NCBI GenBank assembly: GCA_035504595.1
Contig: DATJRQ010000018.1
Coordinates: 80,143 to 144,142, forward strand
Direction of reading: 5' to 3'
Length of the DNA: 64,000 nt
Source: Thermoplasmata archaeon
GTDB taxonomy: Archaea; Thermoplasmatota; Thermoplasmata; Lutacidiplasmatales; UBA184
The notes below the pieces were generated by a model. That model did no database searches and was not told the DNA's origin. It was given only the letters and a program-made list of their open reading frames with translations. Position numbers and translations under genes: made by a program. Positions 13,599 to 50,429 of this stretch are shown in pieces; positions within the stretch are counted from its first letter, which is position 1, and each line of letters opens with the position of its first letter.

Positions 13599-14816
13599 CT
13601 AGAGGGGGAAGTCCGGAAGCGCGGCGACCTTTTGGGGGGGACGACCGACCGTCGCCCCGCGAGCGAGATCGAGGGTGCCCGTGTAGGTGACCTCGTCGGC
13701 GTGCGCATCCTCGCGCAACCGGACGTTCACGGCGAAAATGCGGCGCGCCTCCACCTTCTCCTCGAGCTCGACCTGCTCGCCGTAGACGTCCTCGACGCGG
13801 GCCCCCCGGTGCAGCTCGACCGTTCCCCCGACAAGGGGTCCGTACGCTCGGGACTTTCGCTCGAGGCGGATCCGTTCGGCCTTCAGCCCCTCGCGCGTGT
13901 TGACCTGACCGCGGACCTCCGCGGTGGACGTGATCACCGCACGACGGGCCTCGAGCTTTCCGCCGATCTCGAGCGCTTCCGCCTGGAGTGCCTCGCCGAC
14001 CGTCACCGCGCCGCCGACCTCGAGCCGCCCGGTGAGGAGAAGTGAACCGTGGACCTCGAACTTGCCACCGACTTCCACGCTGCGGCCGGACCCGTTGCCG
14101 GAGATCCGGCCGAGACCCCCGATCTCGAGGTCGTCGAACACGAGGTCGCGGTTCGCCGACAGGATCCCCCCGACGTCGACCGACCCGCCGCGACCGTTCT
14201 CCCGGAACTCAGCGAGCCCCCCGACCTCGAGCGAACCGAACCGGAGTTCCCGCTCGGTCAGGAAGCGACCCCCCACTTCGATCGAGCGCCGGACCTCGCC
14301 GCCGCCCATTCGGATCGCGCCGCCGACGGACAGGGTATCGATCTTGACCTCCGCGAGGTCGGCCGAGCCACCGGCCTCGACGGCCTCCGCGGTGAGTTGC
14401 CCGGCGAGCCGGAACTTTCCTCCGACCGACACCGACCGGGCCACGAGGGTCTGGAGACCCTCGAGCACGCCGCCGACCTCGAACTTCTCCGCGTCCGCGG
14501 GCCCCTTCACGCGAAGGGACCGGTCGACGTCGACGCGCCGGGCCTTCAGGGCTCCGTCCACCTCGAGAGCGCAGTCCCGCGCCTCGAGGTCCTCGTGGAC
14601 GACCAGGTCGCCGCCGATCTCGACCCGTCCGTCGTCCGCCCGGAAGCGTTGGCACTCTAGTCCGCCGGTCACCACCGCCGAGCCGTCGAACCGGGCTTCG
14701 CCCGTCACCGTGACCTTGGGGTCCCCCTGGATCCGCACGTCCTCATCGGCCCGCAGGTCCCCCTCGACCATCCCCAGCCGGATCTGGCTCCGGCGCGGGA
14801 TGCGCGTCTCTGCCAT
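13599..14816 (-). CDS. bactofilin-like (polymer-forming cytoskeletal family) beta-helix repeat protein, 405 aa
   Basis: Track ORF with at least 13 [E/D/S][V/I/A]GG motifs by hand count and a 17-residue period over residues ~113-300. No signal peptide or TM segment. Confidence 0.7.
   Translation of the reverse strand: MAETRIPRRSQIRLGMVEGDLRADEDVRIQGDPKVTVTGEARFDGSAVVTGGLECQRFRADDGRVEIGGDLVVHEDLEARDCALEVDGALKARRVDVDRSLRVKGPADAEKFEVGGVLEGLQTLVARSVSVGGKFRLAGQLTAEAVEAGGSADLAEVKIDTLSVGGAIRMGGGEVRRSIEVGGRFLTERELRFGSLEVGGLAEFRENGRGGSVDVGGILSANRDLVFDDLEIGGLGRISGNGSGRSVEVGGKFEVHGSLLLTGRLEVGGAVTVGEALQAEALEIGGKLEARRAVITSTAEVRGQVNTREGLKAERIRLERKSRAYGPLVGGTVELHRGARVEDVYGEQVELEEKVEARRIFAVNVRLREDAHADEVTYTGTLDLARGATVGRPPQKVAALPDFPL
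13917..14480 (-). repeat. 11 consecutive ~51-nt (17-aa) degenerate coding repeats
   Basis: xVGG motif positions at residues 113, 130, 147, 163, 180, 197, 214, 231, 248, 266 and 283 give spacings of 17,17,16,17,17,17,17,17,18,17. Confidence 0.7.
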
Positions 14817-27369: not shown

Positions 27370-27451
27370 CCCGCCGGGGCATCGCCCCCGACGGATTCGG
27401 CCCGTCGGCGGTCGGATATGTACCAATTCCTGCGCGCTTCCCGCCGTAGGA

Positions 27452-27459
27452 TTCAAATA
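27452..27459 (+). promoter_or_regulatory. TATA-like box TTCAAATA
   Basis: Located 25-32 nt upstream of in-frame GTG 27484 of the large surface-protein gene. Confidence 0.35.
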
Positions 27460-27483
27460 CAGGAAACCGGCCTCTTTTCGTCC

Positions 27484-30400
27484 GTGAGCCTTCGTTTGGG
27501 CAGCTCCCCACGTACCGGGGATGCCGCGCGTGCCCCCCGGAACTGGACAAAAGCGGCCCTCGCGTCCGCGGTCGTGCTGGTCATGGTGCTGAGCACCGCG
27601 TCGCTGTTCGCGGTGCCGACCGCCGCCCCGGGGATGGCGACCTCCCCCCTCGCTCCCGTTGCTCCCGGCGGACACGCCGCCGCGGCGGTCCAGCCGGCCG
27701 CGGGTCCGACGCACTCCGACCTGATCATCACCTCGGGCGAGACGTACACCATCGCCCCCGGAGCACCCACCATCTTCCCCGTCCCGTACTTCCAGGGCGG
27801 GAACATCACGGTTCAATCGGGCGGGACGCTCATCGTCCAGGACGTCAATCTCACGTTCGTCCAGTTCGTCGGCAGCAACGGTAGCCTCGCCCAGCGTCTC
27901 TCGCACATCTACCAGTTCACGAACTTCGGTACGGTCGAGATCCAGAACTCGACGATCACCACGGACACGTTCGTGCTCAGCCCGTTCGTCAAGCTCGACC
28001 TCGTCAACGAAGGAACGTTCACGGCGTGGAACACGTCGTTCGCCTTCCCCGGATGGATCGACAACACCGGCGCCGGCGCGTCGTTCACCCTGAACCGGTC
28101 GGTCGTCGAGGCGAATCCGTTCGTCCCCGAGATGCAGGAACCCCTCGCGATCCTGGGGGACACCGCCTACGCCGCCAGCATCTACACGACCGACGGCGCC
28201 CACTTCTACCTGTTCAACAGCTCGCTGAACAACACCTACGCCGACAACACGCTCCTCTACGGGAGTCCGGGTCCGGCGCCGCTGAGCGCCACGAGTGTCA
28301 CGCTCCCCGGCGACGCGAGCAACCTCCTCTCCACGCCGACCGATGTGGCGAACCTGACGCTGGACTACCTGTACAACGGGATCGGCACCGGGGCGGGCTA
28401 TGGCGTCGCCGGCGGCTACGTCATCGCGGACTACAACAACTCCCTCGCCGAATCGAACTACACCGCGAGCGTCGAGTACCAGGGGATCACCTACCCCATC
28501 GCCGGCGTGTTCAACTTCCAGGGCGGCGCCAGCGGTGCCTCGATCGAGTTCGCCCTCCCCACCGCGCTCATTGACGCGATCAACGCCGGGGGGATGTTCG
28601 AGTACCTCACGCAGACGTGCTCGTTCGGTGTCACCGCCGGCTGCGGCATCTATCTCAACTTCACGGCGCTCGCGGGCGCGGGTCCGGTCACGCTTAACCC
28701 GGCCGAGATCCTGCTCGAGGCGGCCGCACAGTACAACGCCTACGCGAACGACTCCACCGTCGTCGCGGTGAACTCCGCACTCGACCTGCAGTGGAACCCG
28801 CCCCCCGCGACCTCGTACTCGAAGTCGTACCCGTACCCCTGGAGCTCGAACCTGTTCTACCTCGTGAACGGTTCGACGGCGTACCTCGCGAACGTGTCGG
28901 TGCCGAACAGCTACACCGCGTACGACCAGTCCGCGTTCGTTCCGGACGCGACCAGCGTGGTCAACGTCTACCGGTGGGCCCAGTTCAATCTGTACAACCT
29001 GACCCTCGTCGACGGGTCGCTCGAACCGGAGGCCGTCGCCGGTGCGGCCGCCACGGCGTACTACGCCTACAACAGCGACCAGTACAGCAACTCCACCGCG
29101 AACGCCCTCAACAACCTCGCCGGGCTCGGGCTCCCCGCGCTCACGGGGTACGTCAACTTCTACGACGGCGAGCACGGAGTGTCGAAGTATGGCGTTTCCA
29201 ACTCGCTCGGCCAGGCGTACGTCCTGCTCGCCTCGAGCCAGCTCGATACCGACATCACCCTGCCGGACGGGTACTTCCTCGGGGCCTACAACGTCGCCTT
29301 CACCGTCCCGTATGTGGCGAACGCGACTTGGGCGCACGCGTCGGTTACGGCGTATCCGGAAGGCGTCGCGCTCGGTACGACCGGCTTCGGGAACTCCGAC
29401 CACCACTCGGTCCAGGTCCCGCTGCCGCCGCCCTCGGTGAAGCTCACGAACCTTCAGATCGTTGACGTCCCCTCGGGCGGCGAGCTGATCCTCACCAACT
29501 CCTACACCACCTCCGGCAATCTGACCATCAACGGGCCCGGCTACGCGTCGATCGTGATCCAGGCGACCCCGGTCGGCAGCGTGATCGGGGGCGGCTCCAC
29601 GGTCAATGTGGCGGAGGACGCCGACGTCGCGAACGGCTCGTTCGATATCGCATGGAACTCGCTCGTGGGGGTCCTCTCCCCGGGCACGACGTACCAGGTC
29701 ACGGCGTCGGCCACGTACAAGACGGCCGCCGACAACCAGGTCACGGTGGGCACTCCGCCCGGCACCTACAGCGTCCCGTCGAGCCCGTCCGCGGTCGGCT
29801 TCCTCTACCAGAAGCTCCTGGGCCTGCCACTCTGGGTATGGATCGCGATCGCCGCCGCGATCGTCATCGGCCTCGTTGCCGCGCTGCTCGTTACCCGGCG
29901 CCAGGCCGCGGGCAAGCTCGTCGAGTGCGGCGAATGCGGGGAGCTCATTCCCGAGGACGCCACCGTATGTCCGAAGTGCGGGGCGCAGTTCGAGACCGAG
30001 CTCGTGCGGTGCAGCCGTTGTTCGTCCACGATCCCCGCGAACTCCCAGTTCTGTCCGGAGTGCGGCGCGCAGCTGCTCGGCAAGCCGGGCGAAGGCGCGT
30101 CCGACCCGGAGCGCCAGGCCTACGCGGACTTCACGGAGAAGTACCGGGCCGAGGGGAAGAAGGAGCTCGGCGACAACTACACCGAGAGCGCCTTCTGGGA
30201 CTGGTGGAAGCGCCAGCCGACGTACGTTCCGTTCAGCCAGTGGAAGGCCCAGCAGAACAAGGGGGCCCCGCGGGCCGGCATGAGCGCTCCGCCGGCGGGT
30301 ACGGAGAGCGTGCCGCCGGCCACCTCGGCCACGACGGACGCGAACATGGCCGCGACGCCGCCTCCAACTTCCGCGCCCGGAGCCCCGCCGACGACGGGAA

Positions 30401-30525
30401 TGGCGGCTCCGCCGACCCCTCCCCCCTCCGCGGGCGCGACGGGACTCAAGCCGTGCCCGAACTGCGGCAAGGAGATCCCGCCGGAGTACCTGGTCTGTCC
30501 GTTCTGCGGCGCGGTGACCCAGTAG
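27484..30525 (+). CDS. large cell-surface (S-layer-like?) glycoprotein candidate: signal anchor, ~800-aa sequon-rich ectodomain, one TM helix, cytoplasmic tail with three zinc ribbons
   Basis: Track ORF 27418..30525 (longest start ATG 27418; GTG 27484 preferred). N-terminal hydrophobic AALASAVVLVMVLSTASLFAV and about 20 N-x-S/T sequons by hand count. TM helix LWVWIAIAAAIVIGLVAALLV is followed by CGECG..CPKCG, CSRCS..CPECG and a terminal CPNCG..CPFCG. Confidence 0.75.
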   Translation: MSLRLGSSPRTGDAARAPRNWTKAALASAVVLVMVLSTASLFAVPTAAPGMATSPLAPVAPGGHAAAAVQPAAGPTHSDLIITSGETYTIAPGAPTIFPVPYFQGGNITVQSGGTLIVQDVNLTFVQFVGSNGSLAQRLSHIYQFTNFGTVEIQNSTITTDTFVLSPFVKLDLVNEGTFTAWNTSFAFPGWIDNTGAGASFTLNRSVVEANPFVPEMQEPLAILGDTAYAASIYTTDGAHFYLFNSSLNNTYADNTLLYGSPGPAPLSATSVTLPGDASNLLSTPTDVANLTLDYLYNGIGTGAGYGVAGGYVIADYNNSLAESNYTASVEYQGITYPIAGVFNFQGGASGASIEFALPTALIDAINAGGMFEYLTQTCSFGVTAGCGIYLNFTALAGAGPVTLNPAEILLEAAAQYNAYANDSTVVAVNSALDLQWNPPPATSYSKSYPYPWSSNLFYLVNGSTAYLANVSVPNSYTAYDQSAFVPDATSVVNVYRWAQFNLYNLTLVDGSLEPEAVAGAAATAYYAYNSDQYSNSTANALNNLAGLGLPALTGYVNFYDGEHGVSKYGVSNSLGQAYVLLASSQLDTDITLPDGYFLGAYNVAFTVPYVANATWAHASVTAYPEGVALGTTGFGNSDHHSVQVPLPPPSVKLTNLQIVDVPSGGELILTNSYTTSGNLTINGPGYASIVIQATPVGSVIGGGSTVNVAEDADVANGSFDIAWNSLVGVLSPGTTYQVTASATYKTAADNQVTVGTPPGTYSVPSSPSAVGFLYQKLLGLPLWVWIAIAAAIVIGLVAALLVTRRQAAGKLVECGECGELIPEDATVCPKCGAQFETELVRCSRCSSTIPANSQFCPECGAQLLGKPGEGASDPERQAYADFTEKYRAEGKKELGDNYTESAFWDWWKRQPTYVPFSQWKAQQNKGAPRAGMSAPPAGTESVPPATSATTDANMAATPPPTSAPGAPPTTGMAAPPTPPPSAGATGLKPCPNCGKEIPPEYLVCPFCGAVTQ

Positions 30526-40945: not shown

Positions 40946-42238
40946 TTACGGTAGGCGCACGGGGACCGTCTGTCCCGAGTACGCTCCGATGCCGAGGACG
41001 ATGAACGTGTTCCCGACCCCGGCCGGGTTGACCGTTCCCATGTCGATCGAGATCTCGTATCCGTTCGTGAGCGGGCTCGACGTCTTGAACCCCGCCGCGT
41101 AGGTGGAGAACCCGGAGTTCGGCATCAGCATCGTGTACGGGGACGAGGGGGCCACATAGCTCGCGGACACCGTGCCGGGGGCGGTGGTGGTCGAGAGGGC
41201 GAACGCGCCGTGGGTGGTTGCCGCGAACGTGGCGCCCGACGGTGCCAGCACTTCGAATAGAACGTTGCCGAAGGTGATCGGCGAGTACAAGATCGGGACT
41301 ACGTAGTAGTAGTCGTTCGCCGCCTGGCACGCCGCGACGGGCGTAGCCGCGGCGGTGCACTTTCCCGCGGAGGTGGCGGTACCCAGCGCGATCGTGTGCG
41401 TGATAAGGGTCGAGTACGGAGTGATGTAGATCGGGATCGCGGTGACCCCGGTGACCCCGCCGGTTGTCGTGGCGTTCACGATACCGTAGTACGCACCGCT
41501 CGCGGTGGTCCATCCCGCCGGCACCGTGAAGTTCCATGCTCCGGCCAGGTAGACCATCCGGTGGAGGGCAGTGAACGTCCCCGGAACTCCGGAGAGATTC
41601 ACGAACACGTTGTTGCCCGGATAGACGTTGCCAATTTCGACGCTGATGTTGAACGACTCCCCGATCGCCGGGCTAGTCGGGTTGGTGGCCGGGTCGTAGA
41701 ACACAGGGGGGAGCAGCGCGGGGGTGCCAGGGAGAACCGCGCTGAAGAGCAGGGAAGTGCCCGAGACGATGCTGATCGTGATGTTATCCGGGAGAACGGG
41801 ACGGAATCCCCCGGTGAAGTTGGACCCGAGGACGAACGTTTCGCCGGGGTTCCACGCCATCCCGGCCGGGATGCCGCCGGCGGTCAGCGGGTAGGGGCTC
41901 TGGAACTCCGGTCCTTTCGGATGGAGGGACGACTGAAGGTAGACCAGGGCGGATCGGGGGACAACGGGGCCCGCATTGTAGGCGATGGTGATCTGAGCGA
42001 CCGCAATACCGGAACCGTTGGCTTCGGTCACCAACTGCGCCGAGAACGAGCTCGAACTCTGGTTCAAGGGGGTCGGAAATCCGAGGACGAAAGTCAGGAT
42101 CGATGCGAAGATCACCACGGTAAGACCCAGCAACAGAATCGTTGCCACGACGTCGGATACCGCTCGCGGACTCCGTCGGAAGCGGCGGTCATACCGGTGG
42201 CCGCGAGCGGGGGGGGCCAACGAAGCGAAGCGGTGCAC
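40946..42238 (-). CDS. archaeal type IV pilin-like protein (class III signal peptide), 430 aa
   Basis: Track ORF with N-terminus ...RRSPRAVSDVVATILLLGLTVVIFASI, the basic-then-A/G-then-hydrophobic pattern of prepilin-peptidase substrates. The C-terminal module is shared with the next two genes. Confidence 0.75.
   Translation of the reverse strand: MHRFASLAPPARGHRYDRRFRRSPRAVSDVVATILLLGLTVVIFASILTFVLGFPTPLNQSSSSFSAQLVTEANGSGIAVAQITIAYNAGPVVPRSALVYLQSSLHPKGPEFQSPYPLTAGGIPAGMAWNPGETFVLGSNFTGGFRPVLPDNITISIVSGTSLLFSAVLPGTPALLPPVFYDPATNPTSPAIGESFNISVEIGNVYPGNNVFVNLSGVPGTFTALHRMVYLAGAWNFTVPAGWTTASGAYYGIVNATTTGGVTGVTAIPIYITPYSTLITHTIALGTATSAGKCTAAATPVAACQAANDYYYVVPILYSPITFGNVLFEVLAPSGATFAATTHGAFALSTTTAPGTVSASYVAPSSPYTMLMPNSGFSTYAAGFKTSSPLTNGYEISIDMGTVNPAGVGNTFIVLGIGAYSGQTVPVRLP
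41303..41340. repeat. 38-nt segment nearly identical (2 mismatches) to 42614..42651
   Basis: GTAGTAGTAGTCGTTCGCCGCCTG(G/A)CACGCCGCGAC(G/C)GG on the plus strand. It encodes the shared PVAACQAANDYYY peptide of the two large pilin-like paralogues. Confidence 0.8.
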
Positions 42239-42259
42239 GGACCAGTTCCCTCCTCGCCC

Positions 42260-43624
42260 CTAAGGGAGTGCGACCGCAACGTAGCTCGTGTACGGTCCGA
42301 CCCCGAGAACCAGGAAGTTCAGTCCGGTGCCGGCGGGGTTGACAGTCCCGACGTCGACTTCGATTATGTACGAAGTCGTCAGGGGGGACGAGGTCGTAAG
42401 CGCCCCGCCGAACGTGGAGAAACCGGACGTCGGCATCTGCATCGCGTAGGGCGAGGCGGTGACGTAACTAGCAGCGACCGTCGTGAGGGTCGTTGAGAGC
42501 GCGACCGCGAACGCGCCGTGGGTCGTGCCGTCATACACGGTGCGGGTTGACGTCAGGACTTCGAAGAGCACGTTGCCAAAGGTCAACGGCGGCGATCCGG
42601 TGATCGTGATCTTGTAGTAGTAGTCGTTCGCCGCCTGACACGCGGCGACCGGTGTCGCGGCCGCCGTACACTTGGCGGACGCCGCGACGGGGGTCCCCAT
42701 CGTGAAGACGCTGCCGATGAGCGTTGAATATGGAGTGATGTACACCGGCACCGCCGAAGTGCCGGACCAGCCGTACCCGGCGGTGGTTGTGGCCGTGATC
42801 GGGACGTAGTACGTTCCGGCGGCGGTGGTGGACCCGAGTGAGATCGAATACGACCACTGCCCCGTCGCGGCGGAGTAGGTCATCGCCACCGGGGTCGTCT
42901 GGGTTGAAAGGCCGGGTAGGCCGGAAAGGATCGCGGTCACCGAGGTGCCCGCGCCCGGTACGACCCCCTGGATCGAGGCCCAGATTGCGAATGGGCCCCC
43001 AATCACGGGGACAGCCGGCGTGGTGCCGGTCGACAGGAACGCGAAGGACTGAGAGGTGGTCGCTACCGGCAGCGCGACGGTAAAGAGGACCTGATAATCG
43101 TAGTAAATGTACACGCTGATCGTGTCGGGCTGCGATCCGGCGAACGCGTACGGGTGACACGGCGCCGTGCACGGCGAGCCCGTCGGGACGAAGCTCGTCA
43201 GGAGCCAGGTCTGCCCGAGGTTCCAAGTGTTACCGGTAACGTTGCCGTTCGGGAGGGTGTACGTCCCGGTGTACTGCGAACTTGTGGGGAAGTACTTCGA
43301 TCGGACGTAGATCGAGGTCTGCGACGAAACCGGTGGTCCCGCGAGGTGCGTGATGGAAACTGCCGTGATGAAGCCCCCCGTCCCGGTGGCATTTGGAGTC
43401 ACAGTGAGGCGTGCCTGGAATTGGTTGGAATTCTGCGCGGGAGGCGCCGGGAACGCCGAGACCCACGCAAAGATCGACGAAAAGAGGACGACCGTCATCG
43501 CCAGGAGCAGAATGGTTGCGATGACCTCCGAGACCGCCCGACGCGACCGGACGAGGCGGCCCCGATATCCCAGACGCCCACCCTTCCCGTTCAGGAAACG
43601 ATGGTTCGAACCTTCCTGAAGCAT
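42260..43624 (-). CDS. archaeal type IV pilin-like protein (class III signal peptide), 454 aa, paralogue of 40946..42238
   Basis: Track ORF with ...RSRRAVSEVIATILLLAMTVVLFSSI. The C-terminal ~170 aa are clearly alignable by eye to the neighbour. Confidence 0.75.
   Translation of the reverse strand: MLQEGSNHRFLNGKGGRLGYRGRLVRSRRAVSEVIATILLLAMTVVLFSSIFAWVSAFPAPPAQNSNQFQARLTVTPNATGTGGFITAVSITHLAGPPVSSQTSIYVRSKYFPTSSQYTGTYTLPNGNVTGNTWNLGQTWLLTSFVPTGSPCTAPCHPYAFAGSQPDTISVYIYYDYQVLFTVALPVATTSQSFAFLSTGTTPAVPVIGGPFAIWASIQGVVPGAGTSVTAILSGLPGLSTQTTPVAMTYSAATGQWSYSISLGSTTAAGTYYVPITATTTAGYGWSGTSAVPVYITPYSTLIGSVFTMGTPVAASAKCTAAATPVAACQAANDYYYKITITGSPPLTFGNVLFEVLTSTRTVYDGTTHGAFAVALSTTLTTVAASYVTASPYAMQMPTSGFSTFGGALTTSSPLTTSYIIEVDVGTVNPAGTGLNFLVLGVGPYTSYVAVALP
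42614..42651. repeat. second copy of the 38-nt paralogue segment
   Basis: See 41303..41340. Confidence 0.8.
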
Positions 43625-43771
43625 CGATTACCCAGTGAATCGCCGGCGCGCATCGATTAGAGGCGGGAAGCGCGTATTTAGACGTTGTCGTTTGGATCGG
43701 AGCGACTGGCCCGTTCCGGAGGGCGAAGAGAAAGTGAAAGGAAAGGGTTGGCACCGTTTCGACCGCGCGCT

Positions 43772-44404
43772 CTACGGGAGCGACACCGGGGACGTCGTAC
43801 CGGAGTACGAGCCGACCCCAATCGCCACGAACGTGTAGCCCTGGCCGGACGGCGAGGGGGCAGTCCCCAGGTCAATGACGATCGTGTAGATGCTCGTCAG
43901 CGGGCTTGAGGACGAGCACGTGTTGCCGTTGCACGCCCCAGCGACCGCGCTAAAGACCGAGAACGGGCTCGTCATCGCCAACGACGCGGACGTCGCGGCG
44001 CTCGCTGCGACCGCCACACCAGCGGTGTTCACGATCGCGAAGCCACCGGTACCCGTCGTGATCGCGGCAATCGATCCGGTCGCCGTCTTGACCTCGAACT
44101 GGGCGCTCGTGAAGGTGATCGACGAGCTCTCCACGGTCAACGTGTAGATGATGTCGCCCGCCTTGCACCCGTTCGCAGCGTAGGTGTTCCCCGCGCCGCA
44201 CGTGGACGAAACCGGGTTTCCTGCGTTGAAGGCGGTCCCGATCCCCACCGAGCCAGGTCCGTGGGTCAGGCCCGTGATCAGCACGTACAACACGGCGGCC
44301 AATACGACCGTGATCGCGACGAGCAAAATCGTCGCAATGATCGGCGATACCCCGCGCTTCCGCGCCTTTCTCCAGCTTCGCTCGCTCTTTCCAAAGACGT
44401 TCAT
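43772..44404 (-). CDS. archaeal type IV pilin (class III signal peptide), 210 aa
   Basis: Track ORF with MNVFGKSERSWRKARKRGVSPIIATILLVAITVVLAAV, a near-canonical archaeal pilin/DUF1628-type N-terminus. GGAGG lies just upstream of the ATG. Confidence 0.8.
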   Translation of the reverse strand: MNVFGKSERSWRKARKRGVSPIIATILLVAITVVLAAVLYVLITGLTHGPGSVGIGTAFNAGNPVSSTCGAGNTYAANGCKAGDIIYTLTVESSSITFTSAQFEVKTATGSIAAITTGTGGFAIVNTAGVAVAASAATSASLAMTSPFSVFSAVAGACNGNTCSSSSPLTSIYTIVIDLGTAPSPSGQGYTFVAIGVGSYSGTTSPVSLP

Positions 44405-45766: not shown

Positions 45767-45859
45767 ACACGGCGTGTTCGCGCCCCTATGCGAGCGCATA
45801 CCGCGCTCGCCGCCGCTTCAAATCCCGGGTCGCGCGAGGGAGGGTCGAGAACCCCGCCC

Positions 45860-46573
45860 ATGGCGACCCACCTTCGCATCAGTCTCACGATCCTCAGCAT
45901 GGGATTCGCGGTGGAAGGCATTGCCGAGCTGTACTCGCTCACCACGGCGGGCGCGCTCTTGCCCGGAACGAGTTGGCTGTTCCTCTTGCCGGCGCTCATC
46001 ACGGTCCTGGGCCTCCTGTTCATCCTGGTCGGAAAGCACGAGTGGGACGAGGTCCATCGGAATCGCGTGCACCGAGCCAATACGGTATTCGTGGCCAGTC
46101 TCGTGGCGGGGGTGGTCGCGATCCTCGAACTCGGGGCGCTCGCCCTCTACCCCGCCTTCGGAACCCCCTGGTGGGCGGAGCTCCTGTTCGGCGGGGCCGC
46201 CGCCGGCTTTGTCCTCGGAACCTTCGTCACGTACAGTCTGTTGGTCTTCCATCTAGTCCACACGCCGAGCAAGGGAGCGCTCGTCGCGGCGATGGCCTGG
46301 GCGCTCCTCGTCTCCGCATTCATCGGGGTCACCCTGGCCGCGGACCTTCCGTCGATCCTCGGGCTCATCCGGGCGAGGTCGTTGTCATTCGAGTCCCTGT
46401 TCGGGCCGATCGATTACCTCGTGTCGTTCCTGTTCCTCTCGTACTTCCTGCTGCTCGCGGCCTACGTGGATGCGCACGTCACGGTCGCGCGGGGGCTCCC
46501 GAGGAAGACCCGGCCGCGCGGGCCCCCGGGCGAAGGGCCGGCCCGGGCCCAGACCTCGAACATCGCGCGCTGA
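45860..46573 (+). CDS. integral membrane protein, unknown function
   Basis: Track ORF 45788..46573, start ATG 45860 (MATHLRISLT...). About 7 hydrophobic helices. Confidence 0.7.
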   Translation: MATHLRISLTILSMGFAVEGIAELYSLTTAGALLPGTSWLFLLPALITVLGLLFILVGKHEWDEVHRNRVHRANTVFVASLVAGVVAILELGALALYPAFGTPWWAELLFGGAAAGFVLGTFVTYSLLVFHLVHTPSKGALVAAMAWALLVSAFIGVTLAADLPSILGLIRARSLSFESLFGPIDYLVSFLFLSYFLLLAAYVDAHVTVARGLPRKTRPRGPPGEGPARAQTSNIAR

Positions 46574-46629: not shown

Positions 46630-46659
46630 TTGTTCGACAGCTCTAAAAAACTGTTCGAC
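46630..46659 (+). repeat. two exact TGTTCGACA boxes, 21 nt apart (46630-46638, 46651-46659)
   Basis: Read directly from the sequence. They lie in the most A/T-rich intergenic stretch of the window. Confidence 0.85.
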
Positions 46660-46688
46660 ACGTCAGAAAAGTCCCAAACGCGACCTAA

Positions 46689-46719: not shown

Positions 46720-46728
46720 GTTTAAGTA
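46720..46728 (+). promoter_or_regulatory. TATA-like box TTTAAGTAT
   Basis: Located 23-31 nt upstream of GTG 46751 of the RHH gene. Confidence 0.5.
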
Positions 46729-46750
46729 TCAGGAATCTACATGCCTCAGC

Positions 46751-47257
46751 GTGGCCGTGTTCGACAAGTCCGCATCGCGTCCCGGGGCGCCCGTTCGGGC
46801 GCCGGACGAGCGCGGAACCGACACGGAAGACGCGCGCATCGCCCTACGGTGCAACCTGAAGGAGCTTCGGCTGGTCGACTCGTTCGTCGGCAACGGCGAG
46901 TTCGAGTCCCGCTCGGAGCTCATGCGGGCGGCGCTGCACGCGTTTCTCCGGTCGCACGCCCTGTCGACCGCGCCCACGCCCCCCGTAGATGCCGAGGGCC
47001 TCGTCGAGGTCCCCGTGCGCCTGCGGCCCGACGAGTACGCCGACTTCGAGGCCTACGCCCGGCACGTCGCGAACGGACAATCGGTGAGGGACCTCCTCGC
47101 CCAGATCGTCCGGCACGGCGAGGCCGAGATGAAGGTCCACGAGCTCGCAGCCCGAGCTCGCGCAACGGTGCGCGAAGCGGTCGAAAACCGGGCCAGCGCG
47201 GGAGCTCTCCAGGAGAGCGGCAAGGACCTGGAGCGGAAGGGGGTCGTCGGGCGCTAG
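46751..47257 (+). CDS. tandem ribbon-helix-helix (CopG/Arc/MetJ-like) DNA-binding protein
   Basis: Track ORF 46712..47257, preferred leaderless start GTG 46751. RHH-1 is IALRCNLKELRLVDSFVGNGEFESRSELMRAALHAFL. RHH-2 is VPVRLRPDEYADFEAYARHVANGQSVRDLLAQIVRHG, followed by a helical C-terminal tail. Confidence 0.7.
   Translation: MAVFDKSASRPGAPVRAPDERGTDTEDARIALRCNLKELRLVDSFVGNGEFESRSELMRAALHAFLRSHALSTAPTPPVDAEGLVEVPVRLRPDEYADFEAYARHVANGQSVRDLLAQIVRHGEAEMKVHELAARARATVREAVENRASAGALQESGKDLERKGVVGR
46757..46765 (+). repeat. third exact TGTTCGACA box, overlapping codons 3-5 of the RHH gene
   Basis: Read directly. It lies 106 nt (about 5 x 21) downstream of the second box. Confidence 0.8.
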
Positions 47258-47298: not shown

Positions 47299-48222
47299 GT
47301 GGGAGTCTACGAGGCCGAGCGGGTACAGAGCGACCGAAACTCCGCGCCGGGATACGGCGAGCCGATCGAGGACGGCGGGTACGACAACCTGCGCCTCGGG
47401 CAGGACGTTCGATTCGTCCTGGTCGCAGTCGGCGGGGGAGCGATCCGGGTCGGAAGGGAGATCGCGCGTCGCCACATCCGCCATCTCGAGACCGTTGCGA
47501 TCAATTGCGACCCCAAGGTCCAGGGATTCGATGACTACGACCGCCGCGTCTACCTGGGGCCCGACTCGGGCGCCGAGGTCGACACCGGCGGCTCCGCGGT
47601 CGTCGGAGGGGTTCTCGCGCGCGCGGCCGAGCCGGCGCTCGAGCGGATCTTCCATGGGGCCACGTTCGTCATCCTCGTCGGGAGCCTGGGCGGCGGCGCC
47701 GGCAGCGGGGCGTTCCCGTACCTGCTCGACGTAGCCTGCCGTCACTCCGAGGTCCTGAGCGCCTTCGTGATCAAGCCGTTCCGGTGCGAGGGGGAGCGCC
47801 GTGCGCTCGCCGACCGGACGATCGCGCGCCTGCAGTTCGTCGACTCGTTCGTCGAGCGCCAGGAGAGCGGACATGCGTCGCTCTCGACGCTCGACAACGA
47901 GTCCCTCGCCCGCGCCCAGGGCCATCTCGCGTTCCATGAGGTGAGCCGCCACTGGGCGGGCGTCATCGAGCGGCACATCGAGACGTCCTTCGTCGCCCCG
48001 GTCGAGGCGCTGGTCGAAGCCGTGCAGATGACCCGCGTCGCCACCGAGCTTCCCATGAACCGGCTGCCCGAGGCCGAGGCCCCGGCGCTGGGCGGCTATC
48101 CCCCCGCACCTCCGTCGGGACCCGATTTTCCGCCGCTGCTCCCGGCCGCGACGGGTCGGCCCGCCGAGGTCGAGCTGACGTTCGAGGTCGAGCCCCAGGC
48201 TCGACCCGTCAGTCCGTCGTAG
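47299..48222 (+). CDS. FtsZ/tubulin-superfamily GTPase lacking the FtsZ C-terminal domain (307 aa)
   Basis: Last 307 codons of track ORF 46741..48222, from GTG 47299 preceded by GAGGGGGG. FVLVAVGGGAIRVG matches the FtsZ T1 region and TVAINCDPKV matches FFAVNTDAQA. FVILVGSLGGGAGSGAFPYLLDVA matches the GGGTG(S/T)G signature, and SAFVIKPFRCEGERR matches VVTKPFNFEGKKR. A Pro-rich tail ends in VELTFEVE. Confidence 0.8.
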   Translation: MGVYEAERVQSDRNSAPGYGEPIEDGGYDNLRLGQDVRFVLVAVGGGAIRVGREIARRHIRHLETVAINCDPKVQGFDDYDRRVYLGPDSGAEVDTGGSAVVGGVLARAAEPALERIFHGATFVILVGSLGGGAGSGAFPYLLDVACRHSEVLSAFVIKPFRCEGERRALADRTIARLQFVDSFVERQESGHASLSTLDNESLARAQGHLAFHEVSRHWAGVIERHIETSFVAPVEALVEAVQMTRVATELPMNRLPEAEAPALGGYPPAPPSGPDFPPLLPAATGRPAEVELTFEVEPQARPVSPS

Positions 48223-48291
48223 CGGCGCGGGGTGCGGGTCGCGCGGCCCGCCCTCAGGGCTTATGAACGGAACCGCTTCCCGTCTTCCGCC

Positions 48292-49394: not shown

Positions 49395-50429
49395 GTGGGG
49401 CTTCCCCTCAAGGACCTCGTCGCCGCGCAGGAGCTTTCGTGGGACGCCCTGGCGGGGCGGACTCTCGCAGTCGACGGATTCAACGCCGCCTATCAGTTCC
49501 TCGCGACGATCCGCCAGCGAGACGGCCAGCTGTTCACGGACCCCGCCGGGAAGGTCACCAGTCACCTGATGGGCACCTTCTACCGTACGACGTCCCTGCT
49601 GCAGCAGGGGGTGCTCCCGGTATGGGTCTTCGACGGGAAACCTCCCGAGCGAAAGGCCGGCACGATCCGACAGCGGATCGCCGCGAAGGAGAAGGCGGAA
49701 GGAGAGTACCGGGAGGCCCTCGCCGCTGGGGACCTTGAGACCGCCCGGCGGAAGGCCGCGCAGACCTCCCGTCTGACCCGCCCGATGGTCGACGAACTCG
49801 TCGAGCTGCTGGGCGCGATGGGGGTGCCGACGGTGCAAGCCCCGGGCGAAGGGGAGGCGCAGTCGGCCGTGATGGCCGCGCAGGGCACCGTCTGGGCGAG
49901 CGCCTCGGAGGATTACGACACCCTCCTGTTCGGCGCGCCCCGCCTCGTCCGGGGGCTCGCGGCTCGGGGCCGCGGAGGGGCGACCCCCGGCGCCCAGTTC
50001 GTCGACCGGGCGGAGCTCCTCGCGACCCTCGGGATCGACGGGGAGGAACTGATCACGCTCGGGATCATCATCGGCACCGACTTCAACGACGGCGTGCGGG
50101 GGTATGGCCCCAAGAAGGCGCTGAAGGCGGTCCGGGAGCACCTGGGGTTCCGCGCTACGGTCGAGAAGCTGGGCCTCGACCTCGCGGAGGCTGACGCGGT
50201 CGCCGAGATCTTCCGCCACCCGACCTCTATGACCGTACCGGCGCCCGCGTTCGGACCGGTCAACGAGGAAGCGGTCCGACGGATCCTCGTGGATGGCCAC
50301 GGCTTCTCGGAGGAACGCGTCCGGGCCGCGATCGCTCGGGCCCGCCAGCGGCCGCGCGTCGCCGCGTCACCCGCCGAGGCGAAGAGTCATCAGACCCTGC
50401 TCGACACGTTCGGCGGGGGTGGGGAATGA
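49395..50429 (+). CDS. fen: flap endonuclease 1
   Basis: Track ORF 49350..50429, start GTG 49395 (VGLPLKDLV...). AVDGFNAAYQFL, VWVFDGKPPERK, GEGEAQ and SEDYDTLLFGAP are present. Confidence 0.95.
   Translation: MGLPLKDLVAAQELSWDALAGRTLAVDGFNAAYQFLATIRQRDGQLFTDPAGKVTSHLMGTFYRTTSLLQQGVLPVWVFDGKPPERKAGTIRQRIAAKEKAEGEYREALAAGDLETARRKAAQTSRLTRPMVDELVELLGAMGVPTVQAPGEGEAQSAVMAAQGTVWASASEDYDTLLFGAPRLVRGLAARGRGGATPGAQFVDRAELLATLGIDGEELITLGIIIGTDFNDGVRGYGPKKALKAVREHLGFRATVEKLGLDLAEADAVAEIFRHPTSMTVPAPAFGPVNEEAVRRILVDGHGFSEERVRAAIARARQRPRVAASPAEAKSHQTLLDTFGGGGE

Follow-up and report, generated by a model that had tools for sequence, protein, structure and literature searches.

FtsZ and tubulin are generally seen as two-subdomain units, in which assembly and GTPase activity need both faces of the molecule. 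Here we describe a gene for a single-domain FtsZ-like GTPase in a 64-kb stretch of DNA (the window) from a Thermoplasmata archaeon (assembly GCA_035504595.1, contig DATJRQ010000018.1, positions 80,143 to 144,142), together with the regulator gene and the membrane mini-protein gene that flank it. The closest described system is the archaeal cdrS-ftsZ2 operon, in which the gene of the ribbon-helix-helix (RHH) regulator CdrS lies upstream of ftsZ2 (Darnell et al. 2020, PMC7439475). In Haloferax volcanii, SepF binds and anchors FtsZ2 and not FtsZ1 (PMC8187382); a 'GID'-type motif defines the SepF-binding C-terminal domain of FtsZ in archaea (PMC8178401), and pseudomurein methanogens have FtsZ1 only (bioRxiv 10.1101/2020.06.04.133736). 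The present locus shares with cdrS-ftsZ2 an RHH gene immediately upstream on the same strand, an N-terminal domain that scores best against FtsZ2, and a T6 element reading L-D-N. Unlike archaeal FtsZ2, the FtsZ-like protein lacks the T7 loop, the C-terminal subdomain and any GID-type peptide, and it is ~30% identical at most to any canonical FtsZ; the RHH protein is 166 amino acids (aa) long with an added long helix, and TGTTCGACA boxes and a gene for a protein with two transmembrane (TM) segments have been added to the unit.

Two divergent FtsZ-like families are already on record. FtsZl1 proteins are ~1000 aa long, carry a coiled coil and a helical C-domain, and are encoded in an operon with vWA, GTPase and OmpA genes, and FtsZl2 proteins are proteobacterial with a C-terminal alpha/beta region of ~300 aa (Makarova and Koonin 2010, PMC2875224). 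Both resemble the protein described here in having a divergent FtsZ/tubulin GTPase domain, and FtsZl1 likewise is without a recognisable FtsZ C-terminal domain and is suspected of a membrane role; the present protein is, however, much nearer to canonical FtsZ. The preliminary description of this locus had left it undecided whether the protein belongs to one of the predicted families, and both assignments were ruled out on length, architecture, neighbours and taxonomy: with 307 aa, no coiled coil, and an RHH and a two-TM protein as neighbours it is not an FtsZl1, and neither length nor taxonomy fits FtsZl2.

The TubZ-TubR-tubC type III partition systems show the same order of DNA repeats, a gene for a DNA-binding protein and a tubulin-superfamily GTPase with a flexible conserved tail. 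TubZ, however, is a polymer-forming protein with both domains, TubR belongs to the winged-helix proteins, and the sequence similarity of our protein to TubZ and RepX is marginal (E 0.01-0.1). A parallel of another kind is offered by proteins that act on filament ends. An incoming FtsZ subunit joins by its N-terminal face; the exposed C-terminal interface that receives it at the plus end can also be blocked by a cap (PMC9897490): occupation of the last subunit's C-terminal interface without provision of a new one stops growth, as with MipZ (PMC9897490) and, as cited there, the engineered bottom-face FtsZ mutants of Du et al. (2018). Those cappers are unrelated proteins or laboratory mutants, whereas the present protein would be a natural, conserved FtsZ paralogue with a tail and operon partners, for which capping is proposed. 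Agrobacterium tumefaciens also has a truncated extra FtsZ homologue alongside canonical FtsZ (bioRxiv 10.1101/412759); that case is bacterial and sporadic, and the abstract reports no conserved tail, RHH gene or TM partner.

Architecture and distribution of the FtsZ-like family

The protein is a member of the Tubulin/FtsZ superfamily by its score of 43 bits over residues 41-178 with the Pfam model Tubulin PF00091 (cutoff 33), its GGGAGSG signature, and Foldseek hits of which the best are all FtsZ. The FtsZ model TIGR00065 matches with E=3.6e-17 over residues 36-185 only, yet at 62.7 bits it stays well below the equivalog cutoff of 295.2. PDB FtsZ chains are found at E ~3e-13 with the single sequence and at 2e-17 with a family profile, which recovers PhuZ at 8e-4, RepX at 9e-3, TubZ at 0.09 and CetZ (4b45) at 0.25; FtsZ is thus the nearest relative, and CetZ, TubZ and PhuZ are far away. 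Similarity to FtsZ had been proposed by eye from matching blocks. The open reading frame (ORF) encodes the quoted segments exactly, among them GGGAGSG, KPFRCEG, TLDNE, a Pro-rich stretch and the terminal AEVELTFEVEPQARPVSPS, and the similarity is statistically supported by PF00091, TIGR00065 and the PDB FtsZ chains for the N-terminal domain only.

There is no Pfam match to FtsZ_C (PF12327, strands S7-S10) anywhere in the 307 aa. An AlphaFold2 (AF2) model built from 31 family members has a predicted local distance difference test score (pLDDT) >90 over residues ~40-240, with elements S1-H1 through S6-H6 in the order of the FtsZ N-domain, an extra helix peculiar to the family (182-189), a single long helix (212-249) and no ordered structure beyond 249. 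A Foldseek search of the PDB returned FtsZ chains only among the top 50, with ~190-200 columns of the ~305-residue targets aligned and a template-modelling score of ~0.5 either way, the aligned part being the N-domain plus H7. The absence of the C-terminal subdomain, which had been noticed by eye, is thus borne out by profile, model and structure comparison alike. The T7 synergy loop N-x-D-x-x-D after H7 is not present in either the alignment or the model: the FtsZ loop P-G-L-I-N-V-D-F-A-D aligns to A-P-V-E-A-L-V-E-A-V, modelled as helix, and only P234 and E236 are near-invariant in this segment. In FVAPVEALVEAV, the candidate T7-like acidic loop of the preliminary description, AF2 runs the H7 helix straight through and the motif is missing. 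We conclude with high confidence that the protein keeps the nucleotide-binding domain and H7 and is without the T7 catalytic loop and the whole C-terminal subdomain.

The retained half is under clear constraint. The recognisable elements comprise T1 GGGA, N-C-D, T3 D-T-G-G-S, T4 GGGAGSG, T5 KPFRCEGERR and T6 L-D-N, and the positions that vary little or not at all across ~100 distinct sequences of the family are G45-G46-G47 (T1), E64, N69/D71, G98 (T3), G131-G132-x-x-G135 (T4), P160-F161-x-x-E164-x-x-R167-R168 (T5) and D199-N200 (T6), which coincide with the nucleotide-binding elements. The tail is conserved in a different manner. It is disordered and Pro-rich, as the family alignments and AF2 confirm for the linker and terminal peptide of the preliminary description, and carries the motifs PMNRIP, L-P-A and a terminal [DE]-V-E-L-x-F-E-V. 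In an alignment of 13 sequences, some of which share just 36-40% identity with the window protein, neither E292 nor E296 varies, and the hydrophobic residues V291, L293, F295 and V297 alternate in the pattern of an amphipathic acidic beta-strand. The terminal peptide is likewise strictly conserved in the larger set of ~100 distinct sequences. The archaeal GID-type C-terminal peptide is missing from this end. By analogy, a likeness to the FtsZ tail that docks membrane anchors is plausible. At the other terminus, residues 1-30 (window 47299-47390) are disordered and contain Y-E-A-E-R...D-R, conserved in the main clade, as another short linear motif beside those of the tail.

The gene model is secure. 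Third-position GC supports the frame from ~47340 to the stop codon, and a Shine-Dalgarno-like run, GAGGGGGG, precedes the GTG at 47299, which is taken as the start because homologues begin with the same M/V-G-x-Y-E-A-E-R. A longer ORF from 46741 was rejected; its 5' extension is non-coding in that frame, and another gene occupies the space.

The family is large and sharply bounded. A word-indexed search found 429 relatives; the 120 listed are 268-320 aa long, nearly all covering 91-100% of the query. They appear in their sources as 'hypothetical protein' or 'Tubulin/FtsZ family, GTPase domain', those at NCBI being from metagenome-assembled genomes (MAGs) of Thermoplasmata. An exhaustive search of 1.84 billion cluster representatives gave 18 matches below 1e-30, the full-length members among them (302-321 aa) being 36-52% identical over nearly the whole length; similarity then falls sharply to E ~1e-18, followed by thousands of generic FtsZ at ~1e-11 over residues ~36-185 only. 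With one genome scanned per GTDB species, the family turned up in no fewer than 104 species; apart from two, the records bear the title Thermoplasmata or Thermoplasmatales archaeon, with UBA184, UBA61 and a Candidatus Lutacidiplasmatales MAG among them. The carriers, recovered chiefly from soil and peat metagenomes, are known here from MAGs alone, and the divergent family loci checked have 63-70% GC. Our literature search found no paper on this single-domain family, the nearest published category being the unnamed 'non-canonical tubulin-superfamily proteins' (PMC9856176). It is with high confidence an undescribed single-domain FtsZ family confined to high-GC Thermoplasmata. In the FtsZ/tubulin superfamily we would class it as a variant that is new at the level of the family and has a conserved operon and operator of its own.

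Outside the family, five FtsZ-like proteins of 250-300 aa from low-GC metagenomes (P0150, P0169, P0158, P0204 and P0246) also have no C-terminal subdomain; they score best against the FtsZ2 profile and have acidic or Pro-rich tails. Loss of the C-terminal domain may therefore be a broader phenomenon than the Thermoplasmata family. The top-scoring match outside the family (P0143, 731 aa) consists of two complete FtsZ units in tandem.

Operon organisation and affinity to cdrS-ftsZ2

The stop codon of the RHH gene is separated by 41 nt from the start codon of the FtsZ-like gene on the same strand, and the two-TM gene follows downstream (Table 1). This triad recurs in nearly all of the related loci that were examined, and the RHH gene precedes the FtsZ-like gene on its strand in nearly all loci whose upstream sequence is retained. 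It persists in most of the most divergent members (35-40% identity), and in one locus (L088) it is intact although homologues of the flanking PAC2, FEN1 and FTCD genes were not detected nearby, so the three genes form a unit beyond mere inheritance of gene order. We regard it with high confidence as a three-gene unit that is expressed together. The two-TM protein follows the pattern M-[DNS]-G-[RK]...F-x-S-N-P...G-G-x-Y-L-L-[TS]-Y and measures 55-58 aa across loci. In this window its ORF happens to share the frame of the FtsZ-like gene; read-through of the TAG stop codon across 48223-48291 was rejected, since other loci have different frames and a spacing not divisible by three. Just upstream of the operon (45788-46573, +) lies a gene for a multi-TM protein of 261 aa that has no Pfam match; it falls outside the conserved unit, because it is present only in the closest relatives. 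Further upstream, three archaeal type IV pilin-N proteins are encoded on the opposite strand (40946-44404, -), with homologues upstream in most related loci.

The RHH protein contains a strand-helix-helix unit twice, R-I-A-L-R-C... and V-E-V-P-V-R-L-R-P..., followed by a long helix with LERKGVVGR at its C-terminal end; AF2 likewise gives two strand-helix-helix units, at low confidence (pLDDT 62). Its 333 homologues all come from Thermoplasmata MAGs, most commonly at 166 aa and with locus tags adjoining that of the FtsZ-like gene. PHROGs yielded a weak transcriptional-repressor match for it and otherwise essentially nothing, and a PADLOC defence-system scan gave no hits.

A 9-mer box, TGTTCGACA, marks the start of the unit. 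It occurs in four exact copies in the window, three of them clustered at the RHH promoter and start with spacings of 21 and 106 nt. Measured from the RHH coding sequence, the boxes keep their positions in almost every locus of the main clade, and in a set of 91 distinct loci (1.42 Mb) 169 of the 175 exact copies fall in the RHH upstream region. At the position of box 1 most orthologous loci have a box with a GTTCGAC core and variable flanks, a divergent subclade has two boxes 24 nt apart, and the DNA of box 3 also encodes the conserved N-terminal 'VFDK' of the RHH protein. The spacing from the TATA-like element to the GTG suggests that the mRNA of the RHH and FtsZ-like genes may be leaderless or near-leaderless. 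Most likely, the boxes would act as an operator on a leaderless transcript, to which the RHH protein would bind and so autoregulate the unit.

Table 1. Positions of the FtsZ-like gene, its protein segments and its operon partners in the window
Feature	Position	Strand	Basis or remark
TATA-like element TTTAAGTA (putative)	46722-46729	+	Read from the sequence; ends 28 nt before the RHH GTG (46757)
Box 1, TGTTCGACA, putative RHH operator	46631-46639	+	Exact 9-mer
Box 2, TGTTCGACA, 21 nt from box 1	46652-46660	+	Exact 9-mer
Box 3, TGTTCGACA, overlaps RHH GTG start and predicted transcription start	46758-46766	+	Exact 9-mer
CdrS-type tandem RHH protein, 166 aa	46757-47257	+	Weak Pfam match to RHH_1, homologues, AF2, hhalign
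Single-domain FtsZ-like GTPase, 307 aa + stop	47299-48222	+	Profile searches, family search, AF2, Foldseek
Nucleotide-binding domain, residues 36-211	47404-47931	+	AF2
T4 GGGAGSG, residues 131-137	47689-47709	+	Matches the G-G-G-x-G-[ST]-G signature
Extended helix H7, residues 212-249, in place of T7 loop and H8	47932-48045	+	AF2, alignment
Disordered Pro-rich tail, residues 250-307 (58 aa)	48046-48219	+	pLDDT 44-56
Conserved acidic amphipathic peptide A-E-V-E-L-T-F-E-V-E, residues 289-298	48163-48192	+	Alignment
Two-TM hairpin protein, 58 aa	48292-48468	+	High third-position GC; conserved downstream

Which of the two archaeal FtsZ types the family derives from can be read from several sources. 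Canonical archaeal FtsZ sequences fall into two clades. In one, a CdrS-like ORF (M-E-R-V-T-L-R-I-P-K-Q-Q-I...G-E-F-P-N-R-S-E-A-I-R) lies directly upstream of FtsZ in loci L117-L123, L149 and L152; this clade, which includes a Haloferax FtsZ of ~400 aa, is FtsZ2 because cdrS is the partner of ftsZ2 (PMC7439475). The other is FtsZ1, because the Methanobrevibacter FtsZ sits there. Scored against N-domain profiles, each of the 11 family members tested favours FtsZ2 over FtsZ1 and bacterial FtsZ by 13-29 bits. Profile-profile comparison with hhalign agrees (152.9, E=5e-24, against FtsZ2; 119.7 and 120.9 against the other two profiles), and in leave-one-out controls true FtsZ1 and true FtsZ2 lie 33-111 bits apart. 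The T6 element L-D-N-E resembles the L-D-N-N of most FtsZ2 examined; FtsZ1 has P-N-D. The regulator points the same way. The window RHH protein matches CdrS ORFs in phmmer at 1.6e-5 and 1.9e-4, and the RHH family does so in hhalign with a probability of 95% (E=2e-8). In one Methanomassiliicoccales locus (L123) a normal two-domain FtsZ2 is preceded by a CdrS ORF that likewise encodes a tandem RHH protein, and the pairwise alignment of this protein with the window RHH extends into the second strand. Similarity and position together argue for orthology of the RHH protein and CdrS, with the proviso that RHH domains in general look alike.

In the simplest reading, the 166-aa RHH protein and the FtsZ-like gene are a remodelled Thermoplasmata cdrS-ftsZ2 operon, in which FtsZ2 has lost T7 and the C-terminal subdomain. 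This single-domain family is very likely a diverged counterpart of FtsZ2, and in one order of soil archaea it has probably taken the place of the usual second FtsZ. As a class assignment, the protein is one that derives from FtsZ and would work like it, while its score lies below the equivalog cutoff and it has no T7 loop, no C-terminal subdomain and no GID tail.

Several observations were made on canonical FtsZ2 along the way. In an archaeal lineage of 52-55% GC, a 31-32-aa single-TM ORF (MNELLLFQILALAFSVILVLGTIYSIRLYLEI) overlaps the stop codon of canonical ftsZ2 (L112 6142-6240, L113 4512-4610, L115 11113-11208), which hints that small membrane partners of FtsZ2 are more widespread. The homologues of protein P0261 belong to the FtsZ2 clade; the named ones come from Methanothrix, Methanosarcinales, Archaeoglobi and similar, and the contigs have 52-55% GC. 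Another archaeal protein (P0238; 438 aa, very Arg/Ala-rich) has an N-terminal extension of ~135 residues before a two-domain FtsZ2-type body and an altered T7 motif, R-F-D-L-A-E; the extension may hold a helix-turn-helix domain, and a single-protein scan found no close relative in species-representative genomes. In the window itself a 1035-aa protein (27418-30525, +) has as its sole Pfam matches a zinc-ribbon and a double-zinc-ribbon (DZR) near its C-terminus; haloarchaeal CdrL is often annotated through a DZR domain (PMC7439475).

FtsZ1 in the same lineage and possible modes of action

There is no second tubulin-family gene in the window, nor within 10 kb of the gene in 86 related loci. An FtsZ alignment scan for canonical genes, in which 600 pattern matches were examined, identified three canonical FtsZ genes (loci L165, L166 and L179) in Thermoplasmata MAGs of 65-68% GC, and one of them (L165, JABEUK010000151.1) shares a MAG assembly with an FtsZ-like locus (L075, JABEUK010000138.1). 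These proteins group with FtsZ1 in the neighbour-joining tree and are 90-95% identical to each other; they are 376-379 aa long, end in E-E-V-I-D-L-V-R and have both a C-terminal subdomain and an intact T7 loop (V-N-L-D-Y-A-D). The two copies present in the protein collection fall in one cluster at 90% identity, which has 565 members and bears the name 'cell division protein FtsZ [Thermoplasmata archaeon]'. The lineage FtsZ1 is common in JGI peat and soil metagenomes, among them sample Ga0116217, which holds the FtsZ-like gene too. No contig was found to carry both FtsZ1 and the FtsZ-like gene, and the Lutacidiplasmatales paper and its supplements do not mention FtsZ.

The three ftsZ1 genes have neither a CdrS ORF nor a TGTTCGACA box upstream. 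They are preceded by GTTTAAGTA, which is similar to the TATA-like TTTAAGTA, and between this element and the start codon, ~50 nt upstream of ftsZ1, all three loci have a near-identical stretch, GCGTATGACGCTCGTCTGACAAA, which may be a conserved leader or a regulatory site. ORFs with a hydrophobic, pilin-signal-like N-terminus flank ftsZ1 in the high-GC Thermoplasmata loci (L179 6363-7913, L166 2352-4100).

A mechanism can be proposed on this basis. GTP would be bound on the intact 'top' face of the FtsZ-like protein. Without a 'bottom' face the protein would be unable to extend a canonical head-to-tail filament, and without T7 it would be unable to trigger GTP hydrolysis in a neighbouring subunit; from these two absences a role in capping or end binding would follow. 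It would add once to the end of an FtsZ1 filament, docking as the terminal subunit on the exposed C-terminal (plus-end) interface, and the plus end would thereby be capped or stabilised. Because the tail is conserved and a two-TM protein is co-encoded, membrane tethering suggests itself: the tail would tether the complex to the membrane through this protein or another partner. The RHH regulator would limit the dose of the FtsZ-like protein, and autoregulation fits a factor that is needed in limited amounts. We rate the explanation as a whole, an FtsZ2-derived single-domain family together with an end-capping action on FtsZ1, at a probability of about 0.45. The specific mechanism of a membrane-tethered subunit that binds, caps or stabilises the ends of FtsZ1 filaments is put forward tentatively and is somewhat unlikely to hold in all its particulars. 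It is rather unlikely that the two-FtsZ machinery as such has been rebuilt, with FtsZ2 replaced by a single-domain, GTP-dependent plus-end cap or membrane tether of FtsZ1, a new tail peptide and two-TM anchor used instead of or alongside SepF, and dosage set by a CdrS-type autoregulator.

A number of points weigh against the end-capping explanation. GTP binding, the FtsZ1 interaction and binding of the tail to the two-TM protein are all inferred, and the guanine-contacting H7 residues of FtsZ are swapped for a family-specific H-W-A. In the rough neighbour-joining tree the family is monophyletic, but its long branch lies outside every canonical clade. FtsZ1 and the FtsZ-like gene occur together in one MAG assembly, and elsewhere the link is through shared sample types; the absence of canonical FtsZ2 means that none from such genomes was among the 600 matches examined, which is weak evidence, although the ranking would have favoured such a gene. 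Finally, the near-invariant P234-x-E236 might be what is left of T7 and still allow a degree of self-assembly.

This last point leads to the alternative that the protein assembles by itself into a non-canonical filament through a new interface, for instance with the extended H7 and E236 as a surrogate catalytic residue or with helix 182-189, and plays an FtsZ2-like part in constriction with its tail anchored to the two-TM protein. Near-invariance of P234 and E236 just where the FtsZ T7 begins and conservation of the family-specific insertion would fit, and the same possibility was raised for FtsZl1, which is also without recognisable T6-H7 and C-terminal elements (Makarova and Koonin, PMC2875224). 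With the entire bottom interface (T7, H8 and C-terminal subdomain) missing and residues 212-249 modelled as a single, loop-free helix, we consider this unlikely. The tight and universal linkage of the RHH gene and its boxes to the FtsZ-like gene could instead reflect a regulatory circuit with no filament at all, in which the GTPase senses nucleotide state and its acidic tail strand binds the RHH protein and modulates DNA binding. The acidic, beta-strand-like alternation of the tail peptide and the basic nature of the second RHH strand speak for this, the candidate targets being the V-R-L-R strand or the C-terminal helix. Such a GTP switch is quite unlikely: it would leave the conserved membrane mini-protein without a role, and the tubulin/FtsZ domains of known function met here all belong to filament formers. 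FtsZ, CetZ, TubZ and PhuZ are all filament-forming proteins. Moreover, CdrS regulates ftsZ2 transcription in other archaea, and no such feedback is known (PMC7439475).

The succession of repeats, DNA-binding protein gene and tubulin-like GTPase with a flexible conserved tail, which recalls tubC-tubR-tubZ, could point to DNA segregation, with the RHH protein as a centromere-binding adaptor on the TGTTCGACA repeats and the GTPase tail pulling or positioning DNA. There are, however, just two to three boxes, placed like an operator over promoter and start codon; the family profile finds FtsZ at 2e-17 against 0.01-0.1 for TubZ/RepX and ~1e-3 for PhuZ; the domain needed for polymerisation is missing; and the locus holds a conserved chromosomal position with no sign of a mobile element, all of which renders a segregation system highly improbable. 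A decayed, functionless FtsZ2 remnant, or a gene truncated by faulty annotation or assembly, would explain why the protein is shorter than any canonical FtsZ and why, beyond the TAG stop, a small ORF continues in the frame of the FtsZ-like gene. That downstream ORF is the separate two-TM protein, encoded in other frames at other loci, and the family keeps a length of 302-321 aa and the same ends in >100 species, down to 36% identity, with invariant nucleotide-binding and tail motifs. The conservation pattern effectively excludes a relic, and this last alternative is scarcely credible. The FtsZ2-derived family acting at FtsZ1 filament ends remains our preferred explanation.

Neighbouring features and biological meaning

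Elsewhere in the window, a 405-aa protein (13599-14816, -) has a bactofilin domain (PF04519), which belongs to a polymer-forming cytoskeletal family, and its gene adjoins a winged-helix gene. ARAGORN calls a tRNA-Pro at 49937-50019 (+) within the FEN1 (XPG) coding sequence, which is probably a false positive; Rfam recognises no RNA family in the 64-kb window.

The long-term maintenance of a family that has only the nucleotide-binding face implies that half an FtsZ has a selectable function on its own, and the family constitutes a natural test of what such a half can do. Such a family suggests that a regulator of filament ends has arisen in nature from FtsZ itself. The cdrS-ftsZ2 module, which is widely conserved in archaea, appears open to radical remodelling, and this bears on the contribution of FtsZ2 to division in wall-less archaea. 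The locus also supplies experimental material, namely a small protein, a candidate membrane partner, a candidate operator and, with FtsZ1, a candidate filament partner; as the host archaea are known here from MAGs, their cell biology is otherwise out of reach.

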